Assembly (NCBI GenBank): GCA_949128025.1
Contig: CASBRD010000259.1
Span: forward strand, 5,175 to 29,174
Reading direction: 5' to 3'
Length of the DNA: 24,000 nt
Source of the DNA: Oscillatoriales cyanobacterium PMM_0008
Lineage (GTDB): Bacteria > Cyanobacteriota > Cyanobacteriia > Cyanobacteriales > Aerosakkonemataceae
Below, piece by piece: positions 5,569 through 24,000 of the stretch (positions within the stretch are counted from its first letter, which is position 1; every line of letters starts with the position of its first letter). Under the pieces are notes generated by a model that saw only the letters and a list, made by a program, of their open reading frames with translations, was not told the origin of the DNA and made no database searches. The position numbers and the translations under genes are program-made.

Positions 5569-5967
5569 TTAGATTTTTGGCAACATTGCCCGGATCTGAT
5601 TCAAAAACTCTTGATGATCGACCACTGGCTTGGGGATGTAGCCATCCGCACCGCTTTGTTCGAGCAAGTTTTCGCGATCGCCCTCGTTCGCGTGCGCTGT
5701 AACTAAAATCACAGGTAGTTTAGCGGTTGCCGGGTTAGCTTTCAGCATTTGAGTAATCTGAAGACCGTTCATTCGCTTTCCCTGGTAATAACTGTTACCC
5801 AGAGAAACATCCATCAGAATGATCTGCGCTTCCCCAGATTGGGCAATTTGGATTACTTCTTCCACATCTTCCGTGTGGCGTACCCCTAAGCCGCCTCCCT
5901 TAGTCAAAATCTTAGAGAAAACTTTAACGTTTATAGCCTCATCTTCAACAATCAGAACGGTTGTCAT
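5569..5967 (-). CDS. single-domain response regulator (CheY-like receiver)
   Basis: The receiver hallmarks are present: VLIVEDE at the N-terminus, the phospho-acceptor context IILMDVSL, VILVTAH, and a conserved Lys in YIPKP. At 132 aa there is no output domain. Confidence 0.88.
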   Translation of the reverse strand: MTTVLIVEDEAINVKVFSKILTKGGGLGVRHTEDVEEVIQIAQSGEAQIILMDVSLGNSYYQGKRMNGLQITQMLKANPATAKLPVILVTAHANEGDRENLLEQSGADGYIPKPVVDHQEFLNQIRAMLPKI

Positions 5968-6122
5968 AAGAAAGTCCTAGATACAATTGAATTCAAACGC
6001 AGACAATTCCAGCATTACAGCCCGATGTTAGCCTCATGCTTGAGTAATGTTTGTGCAATGTTAGGCTTGGCTGACTTAGCAAACAAATTTAACAAAACTT
6101 CAAAAAAGGTTATGGTTGAGCT

Positions 6123-8477: not shown

Positions 8478-8492
8478 CGGCTCTTTCGGAGT

Positions 8493-8574
8493 TGTTATGC
8501 TTTTGTTCATATAAGAACATTTTTATTTCTTTTCTCCTGGAGCCCCTCTGCCATAGCATAGTAAGCACGGAAGA
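8493..8574 (+). repeat. dispersed intergenic repeat, copy 1
   Basis: Block TTGTTATGCTTTTGTTCA is identical in both copies (18 nt), and ..AACATTTTTAT follows. A pyrimidine-rich variable spacer comes next, then AGCATAGTAAGCA(C/A)GGAAGA, which matches 23898-23988 at 19/20. A TATGCT/AGCATA complement brackets the element. Confidence 0.7.
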
Positions 8575-9009
8575 TCCGCATTACCGTAAGGCCGAGTGCG
8601 GATTGGCGTACTTGACGGAAGGCGAATGCCTACGGCAACCTACGCGATCGCAAATCTGACTATAGTAAGGAACTAATTCAGCAAACCTGCGTCCTTAGTA
8701 TATAGCTAAAAAGTTTTCGCCAGTACAACAAAAAACAATCGACAAATAGTTCTATTGCTTCCGGTTGATGAATAAGCCTTTGACCTCTCCTTAGAATTAA
8801 GAGTAATGAAAATTGGAGTAAAAAGCTCGCCGCACACTTAGGCCAAGCTCCAGCATCACACAACTATTTACACCAAAGTGATGACTCGAAATAACAGACG
8901 CTCTTTAGAGAGTCGCTCAAATCAACCAAACTCAACCTGCACTATCAGAAACAAACTTTTCAACACGGCGTCATTCGATATAACAAACCCAACAAGGAGG
9001 GTGCCATAA

Positions 9010-9786: not shown

Positions 9787-9826
9787 AAAGCGATCGCAAA
9801 CTGAGATAGTTTGCGATCGCTTTTTT
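9787..9826 (+). terminator. rho-independent terminator
   Basis: A perfect 16-bp stem (AAAGCGATCGCAAACT / AGTTTGCGATCGCTTT) with loop GAGAT runs into a T-tract, 19 nt after the stop at 9768. Confidence 0.8.
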
Positions 9827-12812: not shown

Positions 12813-12940
12813 GCTCTAGTAGTTAACCGTGCCAAATGGCGGTGTTGCCCAAATGGCTTTCTGTTTCTCTGATATCATCTCTCTTCCTCCTAAAGACCCC
12901 CACTATCAGCGCGGCGGATATATCGAGCCTTTGGGCGAGT

Positions 12941-14556
12941 ACCGCCAATGCTTTAGTGGCGGTCGGAAACGGGGGATATTTTATGGGGTTCAATACCCCT
13001 AAAATATCCAAATCACTGTGCATAACTATATCCATCCTTTTTGTGAATGTGTTTGCAGTATTTGTGGCCGATCCCTTGAATCAGTCCGTCCGTTGTTGAG
13101 ATATTGAAACTACCCGTGGCGCGAGTTGCGACCCGTCCAACGTAAGTTCCAATCTTTTTCCCAGAGTTGACAATCGCTTTAACAATGTCACCCGTTTGAA
13201 AACCCTTGTGAAACTTGGCTCTAGAGCAATAACGACTCGGAAAACCCCATTTGTCAGTACGGCACTGCTGACGGGTTCCATGACCCTTGGCAGCAATCAG
13301 CAGGGGCTTAACCCCAGTCGTGATTAACTGTTCTGGGGTGGACGCTCCTACGCAGGCTGCATCCCAATAGTGAGTTTTTTCTAAGCCTCGGATTGTCCGG
13401 TTGTACTTGGTGCGACCGCCTGTGCCAACCTCGACAAGTAAGCCGGTTTTTTTGAGGTTTTCGTACAGATTCCATCGGGTTGCATTGACGGCTGCCGTAT
13501 CTGCCAAGGGTCTTTTAGCTTGAGCCAAAATCCGTTTGAGCAGGTCAGGCTGAAGAGAGAGAAAGTCTTTGATGTCCTGATTGCCCTTCTTCTGATTACA
13601 GGGAACGCAGGCTAAACAAAGGTTACTGACGCGGTTAGACCCCCCAATTGAAGTTGGCTGGATGTGTTCAATCTCAAGCTTGGTGTCTTTTGCACCGCAG
13701 TAAGCACAGGTCCTGTTCCACTTCGAGAGCAGAAATTCTCGTACTTCGTAACCAGCCAGAGTCCCCTGCTGGTAACCTACCCCGCTAATCTCAGAATCCT
13801 CCATCTGTTGCGTGTCAAACCGCACCAATTCTTGAGAAATGGCAGTAATCTGACACAGTGACGACAAGCGCTTGACAATCGTCAGGATGTTAGCCACTCG
13901 ACTATTTAATGATGGTGGCAACCATCCTTGTGGTCGGGTGCGATTGAGAAAACGCGGCTGACGGTAGCGGGTTTTACGGTTGCGTCGTGACCGTCGCAGT
14001 TGTCGGCGAGAGGTTAAGGCGTCCCGAATTTGGAAACCTCGGTGCTGTAACTCGGCTGCCCAAACAATTTCACCTGTGCTGTCGTTGACCAAGGCTAATC
14101 CAGTTGTTTTTGCACCAGGGTCAATCTTGATGCGGAGCGGCTCTAATGAAGGATTCAACACCTCCTCTTTCAAAACAATAGTGAAAGGATAGCGACGAAA
14201 AACAGCAGCTTTCCCTTGAGTTAAAAGCATCCTAGCTCTACCCGGATGAACGGGGTTAAGGGGCTGTTTGTTGGGATCTAGAACAAACACTTTGGACATT
14301 ACTGTCCCTCCTTGCGGGTAATGTTAGCCTGGACAATGATTTAAGGGCTTTTTACGCTAACAGCACTGACTCAAACCCGATGATTCTGCTTAACTGTTAG
14401 CCTCAGAGCTACAGACTGGCTTCGTATCCGTAGGTGAGATGACCTAAAAATCGTAGTACCGAAGTACTTAGTCGGGTAAACTCTGGGCGATTATCGCCCC
14501 CGCCATAGCTGTAATCAGCTTGGCGGCGGGTAATTTACCTACAAGCGTTATCTGAC
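12941..14556 (-). mobile_element. IS200/IS605-superfamily-derived IscB element (non-autonomous; no tnpA); boundaries approximate
   Basis: The element contains iscB and its upstream omegaRNA region. The left boundary is inferred from where homology with the second omegaRNA copy stops (~14540-14556). The right side is inferred from two hairpins (12941-12963, 12974-13009) directly after the iscB stop. No Y1 transposase ORF is present. Confidence 0.5.
13013..14299 (-). CDS. iscB: IscB: OMEGA RNA-guided endonuclease (PLMP-RuvC-bridge helix-HNH-RuvC), Cas9 ancestor family
   Basis: The 428-aa protein has these parts: (1) a PLMP-type N-terminus MSKVFVLDPNKQPLNPVHPGRARMLL; (2) RuvC-I IKIDPGAKTTGLAL (D60); (3) an Arg-rich helix RRQLRRSRRNRKTRYRQPRFLNRTR; (4) RuvC-II ISQELVRFD (E157); (5) HNH CAYCG...LEIEHIQP...NLCLACVPCNQKKGN (C198/C201/H212/C231/C234/N235); (6) RuvC-III KTHYWDAACV (H310, D313); (7) a ~100-aa C-terminal domain. 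Confidence 0.85.
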   Translation of the reverse strand: MSKVFVLDPNKQPLNPVHPGRARMLLTQGKAAVFRRYPFTIVLKEEVLNPSLEPLRIKIDPGAKTTGLALVNDSTGEIVWAAELQHRGFQIRDALTSRRQLRRSRRNRKTRYRQPRFLNRTRPQGWLPPSLNSRVANILTIVKRLSSLCQITAISQELVRFDTQQMEDSEISGVGYQQGTLAGYEVREFLLSKWNRTCAYCGAKDTKLEIEHIQPTSIGGSNRVSNLCLACVPCNQKKGNQDIKDFLSLQPDLLKRILAQAKRPLADTAAVNATRWNLYENLKKTGLLVEVGTGGRTKYNRTIRGLEKTHYWDAACVGASTPEQLITTGVKPLLIAAKGHGTRQQCRTDKWGFPSRYCSRAKFHKGFQTGDIVKAIVNSGKKIGTYVGRVATRATGSFNISTTDGLIQGIGHKYCKHIHKKDGYSYAQ

Positions 14557-15198: not shown

Positions 15199-15242
15199 AA
15201 TAAACCCCACTCAAAACTTGTTTGGTTTGAGTGGGGTTTATT
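15199..15242. terminator. bidirectional rho-independent terminator between convergent genes
   Basis: A perfect 17-bp stem (AATAAACCCCACTCAAA / TTTGAGTGGGGTTTATT) with a 10-nt loop is flanked by A/T runs on both sides. Confidence 0.85.
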
Positions 15243-15956: not shown

Positions 15957-16367
15957 TTACGATTTGTCGCTACCTTCCGAAACTCTTTGCCGCTGACTTG
16001 GTGAGGGTGAAGCCGAACGCTGGTCTTTGGTGGCATACTCTCGCCACAGACGAGCCAAATCCTGAGATATATCCCGCCAATCAGGACGAATGCGATACAT
16101 CCTCCGGGGACGTCCGCGTCCTTCTACTTTTTTCCAGTACCCGCCGATCGCCTGTTCCTCCTCCAAGAATTTGAGGGCGCTGTAGAGGACAGTATCGGAA
16201 AGCCGGTAGGCTGGGTATTCACTCTCTATAAGCTGGATTAGTTCTGTTCCATAAGATTCTCCTCGTACTAAGACAGAAAGTACGTAGCACACGGCTAGTT
16301 CTTTGCTCAGATATAGGGGAGGGGGATTGTGAAAAAACTGGTAAATATCGTCAAATTTCATCTGCAT
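15957..16367 (-). CDS. PadR-family winged-helix transcriptional regulator
   Basis: The PadR wHTH pattern is present: YVLSVLVRGESYGTELIQLIE...LSDTVLYSALKFLEEEQAIGGYW...GRPRRMYRI. The track start at 16391 is TTG; I prefer ATG at 16367 (16361 is also possible). Confidence 0.85.
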   Translation of the reverse strand: MQMKFDDIYQFFHNPPPLYLSKELAVCYVLSVLVRGESYGTELIQLIESEYPAYRLSDTVLYSALKFLEEEQAIGGYWKKVEGRGRPRRMYRIRPDWRDISQDLARLWREYATKDQRSASPSPSQRQRVSEGSDKS

Positions 16368-16918
16368 AACCGGCTGAACACTCTGTCCCAAACTGATTTA
16401 AAAGGCATCGGCTCTCGTTTGCCAGTTCCAACCGCACGCTCGAAGAGGCTTTTCAGGGGTGACGCCCGATGGCAGACCGATCGGCAGTATCGCTATGAGC
16501 GTGAATGGCGATGCAGTCCAATTCTGTCCGAAGAGGAACTGCTGAATATTACGATCAATTCTAGACAGTTAATTCTGGGTATGCCTGCCAGACTTCGTGG
16601 GTGATTTTGCCTCCCTCGTCGAAGTGTGCTTTATACAAAAGATAAAAGACCTTAACCAGCCCTTCGTCTAGACCAGGCTCGTAGCGTGATTTCAGCTTTA
16701 ATGGTGCTTCCCCTGCGGCTGGGAATCTTTCCTAAACTATAGGGTTTTTCAACCACTTGGATCTGTTGAATTTTATTTTCTTTAAAGAATTGGTGCCAAA
16801 CCCGGTAAATCTCCTCATCCTGGTGGACTTCATCTTTCTTCCTCCTTGGAGACTCCCGCCAAAACTGTACTCAGTTTGGCGGTGAGAGTCAAAGGAGGGC
16901 CGGGTAAAAGTTGCATAA

Positions 16919-17101
16919 CTATTCCTTTGGTCGGTGAGGAAACCGTTGCGCCTCAAAAGTGGTGAAACTTCTTGGCATACCTGCTGGCATTACAGGATTG
17001 AGGCTACCGATATTGTTCTGTGATTGACCCGCCGCTCCTAAGAGGAGCCGCTTCGCTAACGGTGGGGCGTTTAATTTGTTGGGGATTGCTCCCCCTCCCA
17101 T
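16919..17101 (-). pseudogene. decayed IscB N-terminal remnant (about 60 codons)
   Basis: The ATG at 17101 sits in the same AGTAATG context as the intact iscB start. The translation MGGGAIPNKLNAPPLAKRLLLGAAGQ.. is colinear with ..LDPNKQPLNPVHPGRARMLLTQGKAA.. of IscB. Similarity is then lost and a stop follows. No RuvC or HNH motifs lie downstream. Confidence 0.55.
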
Positions 17102-17372
17102 TACTGGGGTGATGTTCGCCTTGACAATGTTAGTGGTCGGTACTTTCTTTCGTAGCACTGGCTTAACCCTTTAGACCTGTTTAACTACTTGGTTCTAGAG
17201 CTACAGACTGGCGTCGCATCCGTAGGTAGGAACTTGAACTCTTGCCACTAACGTAGGTATTGCTACCTGAGTCTGGTAAACTAGGGCTTTTAAAAGCCCC
17301 CGCTATATCGGTACTCTGATCCTTCGGTGGGTTGTTTACCCACAGAGCCGCTATTCCACAGCATAATGGCAT
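17102..17372 (-). ncRNA. second omegaRNA-like scaffold without an intact IscB (solo or relic omegaRNA)
   Basis: It is colinear with 14300-14570. The 30-nt core 17197-17226 matches at 28/30. The position-equivalent hairpins have different sequences: a GCAA-capped stem at 17256-17267 against the UUCG-capped stem in copy A, and GGGCU../..AGCCC at 17284-17299 against GGGCG/CGCCC. The long-range pair GGUAAAC (17334-17340) with GUUUACC (17275-17281) is retained. Confidence 0.6.
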
Positions 17373-18206: not shown

Positions 18207-19526
18207 GTGCTAGACCTCAAACAGATACGGGAAAATCCACAACTTGTCCTGCTTCGGCTCAACAGTCGCAGTGTGGATCGATATGACATTGAGCCGATTT
18301 TACAGCTAGACCGACAACAGCGGGAACTGGAGAAAGCGCGATCGCATCTCGAAGCCCGCCGTAACGAAATCGCCAAATCGATCCCCAAAAAAATTAAAGA
18401 CGGTGGCGACCCCAACAGCCCAGAAATTCAAGTCTTGCGCGACGAGGGAAACCAAATCAAAGCGACTCTGAGCGAACTCGATCCCCAGGAAAAAGACCTC
18501 AAAGCCAAGCTAGCAGAAGTTCTGCTAGCATTGCCCAACTTACCTAGCGAATCCACGCCCATAGGTAAAAGTGAAGAGGACAATGTAGAAGTACGTCGGT
18601 GGGGTGATGAATACATTCCCCAAAACCCCAATATCCTCCCTCACTGGGAAATTGGCGAAAAACTCGGCATCCTCAACTTTGAGAGAGCCGTCAAAGTTGC
18701 CCAAAGTCGCTTTGTTACCCTTATAGGCGCAGGTGCTGCCCTGGAAAGGGCGCTGATTAGCTTCATGCTCGATCGGCAAACCAAAGCTGGGTATCTAGAA
18801 GTGATACCCCCCTTTCTAGTTAACAGCCAATCCCTCACCGCGACCAATCAGCTGCCCAAATTCGCCGAAGAAAGCTTTAAGTGCGAATCGGATGATTTGT
18901 GGTTGATTCCCACCGCCGAAGTACCCGTAACCAATCTCTACCGAGATGAAGTCCTAGAAGCATCACAGCTACCCATCCACCACTGCGCCTATACGCCCTG
19001 TTTCCGCAGAGAAGCCGGTGCTTATGGACGAGATACGCGGGGGCTGATCCGACTCCACCAATTTAACAAGATCGAGCTAGTTAAATTGGTTCATCCCAGT
19101 ACTTCAGAGGAGGAACATCAATCCCTTGTCCGAGACGCCGAGGCGATTTTGCAAGCCTTGCAGCTGCCTTACAGAGTAATGGAACTCTGTACTGCCGATT
19201 TGGGCTTCGGCGCGGCAAAGTGCTATGACCTAGAAGTCTGGTTGCCTTCTGCTGGCAAATATCGCGAGATTTCCAGCTGTTCCAATTTTGGTGACTTCCA
19301 AGCGCGGCGGGGCAGCATTCGCTTTAAGGAAGCTGGCAAGAAAGGAACCCAGTTTATACATACTCTCAACGGTTCTGGATTGGCGGTAGGTCGCACGATG
19401 GCGGCAATTCTGGAGAACTATCAACAACCTGACGGATCGATCGCAATACCGAAAGTCCTGCGATCGTATCTGGGGCGAGAGGTGCTTACTGGTGCCACAA
19501 CCTACAATAAAGAAATGTATAGCTAA
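18207..19526 (+). CDS. serS: seryl-tRNA synthetase
   Basis: It has a GTG start. The N-terminus (M)[10 protein letters not shown] is followed by a coiled-coil arm. The class II core motifs are present ([45 protein letters not shown]). Confidence 0.95.
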
Positions 19527-21937: not shown

Positions 21938-22025
21938 AAGTCAAAAGTCAAAAGTCACTCATTCAAAAGAAAGAAATAAAAATTATTGTTGTTTCTTTTG
22001 AGTGTTTACTTTTTGCTTTTGACTT
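21938..22025. terminator. long imperfect inverted repeat between convergent genes (probable bidirectional terminator)
   Basis: AAGTCAAAAGTCAAAAGTCACTC..CAAAAGAAA is approximately complementary to TTTCTTTTGAGTG..CTTTTTGCTTTTGACTT. The arms are ~35 nt, A/T-rich and contain several mismatches. Confidence 0.5.
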
Positions 22026-23860: not shown

Positions 23861-23897
23861 AAATAAGCTGCTATACTATCTTTGGGTTTTTCAGAAT

Positions 23898-23988
23898 TGT
23901 TATGCTTTTGTTCAATAAATAACATTTTTATGCCTCTGCTCCTCTGCTCCTCTGCCCCTCGGCTCCTCTAGCATAGTAAGCAAGGAAG
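23898..23988 (+). repeat. dispersed intergenic repeat, copy 2 (with CT-rich octamer tract)
   Basis: It has the same two conserved blocks as 8493-8574. They are separated by a (C)CTCTGCT-like tract repeated about four times (23932-23968). AGCATAGT recurs at 23993-24000, so the 3' block may repeat in tandem beyond the window edge. Confidence 0.7.
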
Positions 23989-24000
23989 AGCCAGCATAGT

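Follow-up and report, generated by a model that had tools for sequence, protein, structure and literature searches.

The window, the stretch of 24,000 nucleotides analysed as a whole, carries on its minus strand two scaffolds of the RNA family RF02033 (HEARO), the RNA today called IscB omegaRNA. Copy A, at 14318-14538 (-), is a full-length match to the family model (131.5 bits in a scan of the window), and directly downstream of it lies an ORF of 428 aa (13013-14299, -) whose Pfam domains, RRXRR and HNH, identify it as IscB. This protein has more than 8000 homologues in the database, the closest of which are named 'RNA-guided endonuclease IscB' by NCBI. Copy B, at 17109-17339 (-), is likewise matched over the whole model (positions 1-211 of 211, 126.7 bits, E = 2.8e-26 in the window scan), above the gathering score of 83 bits. 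It is like the HEARO/IscB omegaRNAs in its helices and covariation pattern, but it does not lie directly 5' of an IscB (RRXRR + HNH) ORF, and a non-coding tail of ~200 nt follows it instead.

Copy B is part of a larger unit. The stretch 17339-16834 (-) is a 506-bp ORF-less IscB guide-RNA mini-transposon, composed of the scaffold, the ~200-nt non-coding tail and a 72-nt far end; its identity, borders, family membership and intact structure are demonstrated, as is the absence of an ORF. The features of this unit, element B, and of the full-length element A, all on the minus strand, are as follows.

17340..17355 (-): predicted 16-nt guide AAUAGCGGCUCUGUGG, in flanking DNA 5' of the element and outside it
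17109..17339 (-): omegaRNA (HEARO) scaffold of copy B, full length, RF02033 126.7 bits, forming 39 of 42 consensus pairs
17097..17108 (-): hairpin 1 of the tail, CCCA-GUAA-UGGG, with a GNRA loop and containing the ATG 17101-17099
17081..17094 (-): hairpin 2 of the tail, GGGGA-GCAA-UCCCC, its 5' arm aligning with the Shine-Dalgarno region of full-length elements
17036..17060 (-): 25-nt insertion specific to B, a small hairpin GCUCC-ucuua-GGAGC, absent from the other four family members and not a multiple of three
16937..17017 (-): 81-nt tail core, a predicted three-way junction, 88-94% identical to L011 and L044
16834..16905 (-): far end of the transposon, where CCUCC (16898-16894) and GGAGG (16845-16841) are the outer arms of a long imperfect hairpin that encloses an inner one (16882-16856)
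16830..16833 (-): ATGA target site, the presumed TAM, host DNA outside the element
12879..14538 (-): full-length element A, 1660 bp, with omegaRNA (14318-14538), iscB (13013-14299), far end and ATGA (12878-12875)

Two diverged scaffolds of common structure

The sole part of copies A and B that blastn can detect as similar (82% over 51 nt) is a common core, ACCTACGGAT[A/G]CGA[A/C]GCCAGTCTGTAGCTCT, with 2 mismatches in 31 nt, in agreement with the 28 matches in 30 nt claimed by the original prediction. Over the whole scaffold, B is about 58-70% identical to A, and the closest IscB-linked scaffolds in the sample show ~63-64% gapped identity to B. The alignment of 47 related scaffolds gave an RNAalifold consensus of 42 pairs, with compensatory changes at 29 of them. 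On this consensus, 24 pairs are identical between A and B, one is changed on one side, 10 differ by compensatory double changes and 7 are unpaired in one copy. The individual helix changes that had been predicted are visible in the Rfam alignment, namely the tetraloop swap from GUAC-UUCG-GUAC to GGUA-GCAA-UACC and the replacement of GGGCG/CGCCC by GGGCU/AGCCC, and the 5' long-range pair is retained there as the closing helix GUAAAx/xUUUAC. Its Rfam score and the 10 compensatory pair changes relative to A establish copy B as a second structurally intact omegaRNA scaffold without a nuclease gene, as first proposed; it is IscB-related rather than a generic repeat. No B-type IscB was found among the best 120 of the more than 8000 homologues of the window IscB, all 120 being A-type. 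The guide was placed just 5' of the scaffold according to the IscB omegaRNA layout given in the available part of bioRxiv 10.1101/2023.03.14.532601, and its sequence occurs a single time in the window.

Other repeats are also present in the window. An unrelated dispersed repeat of ~100 nt is found in two copies (8484-8581 and 23889-23997, +), which are 74% identical and have the core TTGTTATGCTTTTGTTCA...AACATTTTTAT...CTAGCATAGTAAGCA. Long intergenic inverted repeats occur at 21938-22025, 9787-9823, 15199-15242 and 19057-19090, and the 88-nt one at 21938-22025 holds AAAGTCAAAAGTCA-type repeats.

Borders, ends and tail of the 506-bp element

Over its whole length (17339-16830), copy B can be aligned to two IscB-less loci (L044 and L011, Argonema antarcticum), and a metagenome scan with the tail motif yielded two further members, L046 and L047, plus one contig identical to the window. 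In the five-way alignment, homology begins abruptly at 17339, the borders are sharp (GTMAAC...GGAAGAAAG, directly followed by RTGA) and the flanks are unrelated. Cyanobacterial ISC elements have been found by empty-site comparison to have 5'-GT...CG-3' termini and to insert between N and ATGA (Kapitonov et al. 2016, PMC4810608). Together with the sharp five-way borders, this defines 17339-16834 as the element proper and the ATGA at 16833-16830 as its target. The interval of the original prediction, 16919-17372, does contain the omegaRNA scaffold, but the true unit is 17339-16834 plus its ATGA. All 23 elements examined end in this manner, one of them before GTGA. Element A ends with GGAAGAGAG directly before its ATGA; immediately behind its iscB stop it carries an additional perfect hairpin, GGATATTTTAGGGGT...ACCCCATAAAATATCC (13012-12975, -), which is absent in the full-length elements of Microcoleus.

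Over its last 72-77 nt, B shares 81-84% identity with the sequence directly behind the iscB stop in full-length elements of Microcoleus and Nostoc (L001, L031, L034, L040, L043 and L009), and the outer stem of this far end covaries, being CCCCC/GGGGG in L044. Subterminal imperfect hairpins with GAGUAC at each tip are present at both ends of B (17331-17297 and 16898-16841), and the scaffold, which contains the first of them (~17331-17297), doubles as a transposon end. The termini, GTAAAC... and ...GAAAG, do not form an inverted repeat, and there is no duplication of the flanks. A candidate outward promoter in the far end (TTGACT-17-TACAGT) was dropped because it is not conserved among relatives.

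Element B resembles the ISC transposons (Kapitonov et al. 2016, PMC4810608), which have 5'-GT...(C/A)G-3' termini, insert 5' of ATGA and carry subterminal hairpins without target duplication; B has 5'-GT...G-3' termini, lies between N and ATGA, carries two subterminal hairpins and shows no target duplication. ISC transposons are, however, defined by the iscB gene and measure ~1.6-1.7 kb here, whereas B is 506 bp long and encodes no IscB or other protein; it is therefore an ISC derivative and not an ISC element proper. With the PATE-like elements, as the available part of their description presents them (Meers et al., bioRxiv 10.1101/2023.03.14.532601), it has in common that they are short and protein-less, with conserved IS ends and an omegaRNA that would need a nuclease in trans: B is a protein-less 506 bp with IS200/IS605-type ends and five copies in unrelated flanks. 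The PATE-like elements of that account are from Geobacillus and have TnpB as partner, whereas B has an IscB-type RNA, a cyanobacterial host and an extra tail cassette. Like MITEs of DDE transposons, B is internally deleted, non-autonomous and multi-copy, but it has neither terminal inverted repeats nor a target-site duplication, and its movement would use a single-strand Y1 transposase.

The element is present in each of the 21 population contigs with the adjoining DUF3611 gene, whose identity is at least 99.9%; none of them has an empty site, and there is thus no sign of recent mobility. Short-read contigs L054, L055 and L056, from independent assemblies of the same organism, end inside the element, at 17109 (the scaffold/tail junction) and 17248 (the start of the conserved core), which suggests further near-identical copies in those samples.

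The ~200 nt between the B scaffold and the far end are confined to the five family members. Neither blastn nor a covariance model of the core found this tail in full-length elements or Nostocales mini-elements, a plasmid search returned scaffold matches only, and the covariance model R1 of the 81-nt core matches just these five in 373 kb of loci. The core has 93% mean column identity over the five members, while the similarity among their scaffolds, which belong to four clusters, is ~60-86%; tail and scaffold thus act as modules of their own and look exchangeable. Searches of the tail against Rfam gave noise alone at E<=10, and against Pfam no match. In hairpin 1, two stem pairs covary over the five members (CG/GC/UA) and the loops are GUAA or GAAA; the stem of hairpin 2 is invariant, with loops GCAA, GUAA or GAAA. 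With the predicted tail fold 92.4% of cells are paired, a value that drops to 36-46% when the fold is slid, for five sequences from which the structure was itself derived. It includes 9 compensatory pairs, a number reached in 0 of 500 shuffles, with n = 5 sequences and invariant core helices, and its z-score is -3.9 in sense and -3.0 in antisense. Peptide-like strings can be read on both strands (NIGSLNPVMPAGMPGSF and, on the other, WHTCWHYRIEATD), but a coding tail was rejected given the missing Pfam match, the stops and a 2-nt deletion. The variable sites in these strings are mostly non-synonymous, and the tail has no conserved frame, with stop positions differing between copies.

It had been proposed that the region behind the B scaffold keeps an AGUAAUG start-codon context and ~25 IscB-like codons of a gene decayed in place. 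A tblastn search of the window with IscB detected no similarity past copy B on its downstream side (best E=38), BLASTP gave no alignment of the 60-aa ORF behind B to IscB at E<=100, and Pfam reported no RRXRR and nothing at E<=10 in this ORF. In the multiple alignment, CCCAGUAAUGGG of B aligns to the small hairpin between scaffold and Shine-Dalgarno of full-length elements (CCCGCAAGG in A, CCAGUAAUGG in L021), and AGGGGG of B aligns to their Shine-Dalgarno AGGGAC. The AUG of B is thus not homologous to the start codon of A but belongs to the covarying GNRA hairpin, and the ATG 17101-17099 is absent in three of the five members (L011, L046 and L047). A full frame is broken by the 25-nt hairpin insertion in B and by the 2-nt deletion in L044, neither of which is a multiple of three. 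With no IscB similarity, no conserved ATG and frame-breaking indels, the decayed-ORF reading was rejected; what follows the scaffold is a conserved non-coding tail, common to four copies at unrelated loci, and then the transposon end and its N-ATGA junction.

IscB-less copies in other genomes and their target sites

A scan for the core motif in one genome per species gave 45 loci, nearly all from filamentous cyanobacteria. An Rfam HEARO match above the cut-off is present in 43 of the 45, and 29 of these 43 are without a following IscB; solo and nuclease-bearing copies stand at 2 : 1 in the sample. The solo scaffolds are as intact as the linked ones, with Rfam means of 132.9 vs 131.9 bits and, among the 47 aligned scaffolds, 41.1 (solo, n=32) vs 39.7 (linked, n=15) of the 42 consensus pairs kept. 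A search for the second hairpin and ATGA defined at least 13 further solo loci as mini-elements of 377-596 bp. Solo-only scaffold clusters are formed by 13 Nostocales copies, by B with L044 and by L004/L037/L049, while other solo copies fall within groups of linked scaffolds, as L011 does with the Microcoleus type. A single Scytonema genome (NIES-4073) contributes up to 7 core-motif loci.

The Nostocales mini-elements (L005, L006, L008, L015, L016, L023, L024, L025, L029, L032, L038, L041 and L045) measure ~410-600 bp; they have their own conserved structured tail of ~190 nt and modular insertions of 54-160 nt, and they end in ...TTTTCG directly before ATGA. A 377-bp element on plasmid p1 of Planktothrix agardhii PCC7805 (L049, 2990-3366) consists of scaffold, GNRA hairpin, intrinsic terminator (stem + T8), end hairpin and ATGA. 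Its two end hairpins are identical, the terminator comes directly after the scaffold, and its ATGA is the start of the annotated CDS WP_254034956.1. A near-identical copy (L037) lies on a MAG contig labelled Bacteroidota, a label that is probably a binning error. On plasmid pANACY.01 of Anabaena cylindrica PCC 7122 (L050, 3207-6191), the ATGA of a full-length IscB element leads into a small CDS with an HNH motif, behind which comes a TnpB gene, and thus IscB-type and TnpB-type nuclease elements stand side by side. Broken loci occur too: in L028 (oriented 5721-6028) the scaffold breaks off directly behind the core and is joined there to IscB codons 145-197, which is the appearance of a genuine broken relic, and L018 and L042 retain frameshifted IscB pieces.

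The ATGA target can be a host start codon. Of 22 independent elements, 8 have a target ATG that begins a reading frame of at least 100 codons, compared with 11.8% of 2822 control ATGA sites (p=0.003); for 7 of these 8 ORFs, the rebuilt empty site has the frame closed within 1-18 codons on the upstream side. The ORFs are real genes whose start coincides with the N-terminus of their family: CoaBC, FabF, an ABC permease and an MFS_2 transporter. Start-codon junctions are found at L001, L011, L021, L031/L043, L044, L046, L049 and L050, with one annotated HNH CDS among the genes, and the mini-element L011 separates acpP from fabF, all on one strand. At the element end a GGAGG stands 7-8 nt ahead of the target ATG, and this same GGAGG is the 3' arm of the covarying end hairpin (CCCCC/GGGGG). 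The target ATG of B (16833-16830) opens just 33 codons; past the ATGA of element A (12878-12875) there is a 20-codon ORF and then a GAF histidine-kinase gene. In L038, the frame of the rebuilt empty site runs open through 93 codons before the ATG, and this mini-element appears to have split a gene rather than landed at a start codon. A literature search returned nothing relevant on start-codon insertion by IS605/ISC elements. Host transcription into the omegaRNA, combined with a ribosome-binding site borne by the element, may be an attractive reading of these junctions.

Proposed life of a guide-RNA-only element

B is probably a PATE-like non-autonomous ISC element that relies on TnpA and IscB in trans and whose omegaRNA directs the cutting of the empty site. 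According to the available part of bioRxiv 10.1101/2023.03.14.532601, TnpA of this superfamily excises the element, the flank-guided nuclease cuts the rejoined site and the element is then regained by recombination. The same part describes ORF-less PATE-like elements carrying omegaRNAs as dependent on a nuclease in trans (Meers et al.). For B, the corresponding steps of transcription, IscB loading and TnpA mobilisation are put forward by analogy. A Y1 TnpA made elsewhere would recognise both subterminal hairpins and move the element; transcription entering from the 5' flank would give an omegaRNA with the 16-nt flank-derived guide AAUAGCGGCUCUGUGG; and an IscB made elsewhere would bind this RNA and, after excision, cut the empty site, recognised by the guide match and ATGA, for which the candidate target is AATAGCGGCTCTGTGG followed by ATGA. 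Recombination after the cut would then restore element B. Elements with a foldable scaffold would persist, which may be why structure is kept without a nuclease gene. Of the two options first offered, a stand-alone omegaRNA loaded in trans is the better: its intact IscB-less scaffold stands, and it is recast here as the cargo of a discrete ORF-less mini-transposon. The sole IscB of the window, 3 kb away, is a candidate partner at most, its own scaffold being just ~58-70% identical to that of B.

An inert mini-element, with an RNA that is not made or not used and a scaffold that owes its intact look only to copying of working elements or to constraint on the DNA end itself, is unlikely. No consensus promoter-like site was found upstream of the guide, and neither a TnpA gene nor a cognate IscB lies in the window; these absences would suit inertness, as would the uniform 21 population contigs, with neither empty site nor polymorphism. 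The compensatory changes at 21 of 42 scaffold pairs within the five-member tail family agree with constraint on solo scaffolds but are also open to inertness, since one tail is joined to very different scaffolds and an exchange of modules, instead of selection once the ORF was lost, may have produced the covariation. The solo-only scaffold clades, however, keep nearly all pairs, one mini-element has a dedicated terminator after its scaffold, and the transposase hairpin accounts for no more than roughly the initial 45 nt of a scaffold that is preserved over its full 231 nt. Moreover, orthologous solo copies in two Scytonema species have scaffolds that are 98.3% identical, compared with 72-93% for their 5' flanks (Fisher p=0.004), which is consistent with constraint on solo scaffolds; the conservation could come partly from DNA-level needs of the transposon end or from gene conversion between copies.

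It is highly improbable that scaffold and tail have been recruited by the host to serve independently of IscB, for instance as the leader of the PadR-CCB1 genes downstream or as their regulator. Element B is directed toward padR (15957-16391) on the same strand, and relatives of it lie within host operons, at start codons, but padR starts 440 nt further downstream, the family members adjoin unrelated genes, and both transposon ends and the target site of B are intact. Hardly credible is the decay in place of a full-length second IscB element down to ~25 codons, for which the ATG after the scaffold and a readable ORF of 60-79 aa might speak, given that IscB similarity is lacking, that the ATG lies unconserved in a covarying hairpin with indels breaking the frame, that the scaffold is 275 nt from the element end (~1430 nt in copy A), that the same tail is found in four copies at other loci, and that the true relics L028, L018 and L042 look different.

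B as a PATE-like non-autonomous ISC element is not a new system. The HEARO work of Weinberg in 2009 and the omegaRNA work of Altae-Tran in 2021 reportedly mention ORF-less or stand-alone copies, and many ORF-less hitch-hiking copies exist in filamentous cyanobacteria. Its kind is known, that of ORF-less IS200/IS605 elements with a guide RNA; new in B are the IscB type, the cyanobacterial host and the conserved tail. A broader proposal, rather doubtful as a whole and offered tentatively, is that ORF-less omegaRNA elements form self-propagating lineages rather than occasional debris, as their 2 : 1 excess and solo-only clades would suggest, that the B type has gained a new functional cassette, and that the family exploits host genes by inserting at ATGA start codons in sense orientation. 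Host promoters would then transcribe guide and omegaRNA, the terminal GGAGG would replace the lost ribosome-binding site, and the tail cassette might serve to process or stabilise the omegaRNA or to keep it apart from the host message. If they hold, start-codon insertion, the element-borne Shine-Dalgarno and the tail would give a testable answer to how an omegaRNA with an external guide is transcribed, and the side observations, should they hold as well, would offer compact natural omegaRNA variants for IscB engineering.

Solitary HEARO matches should be annotated as mini-transposons with definable ends instead of broken IscB loci. Element B illustrates how an RNA-guided transposon can lose its nuclease yet live on, with the guide RNA alone, as a parasite of its relatives, and in filamentous cyanobacteria the nuclease-less form appears to be the commoner one.
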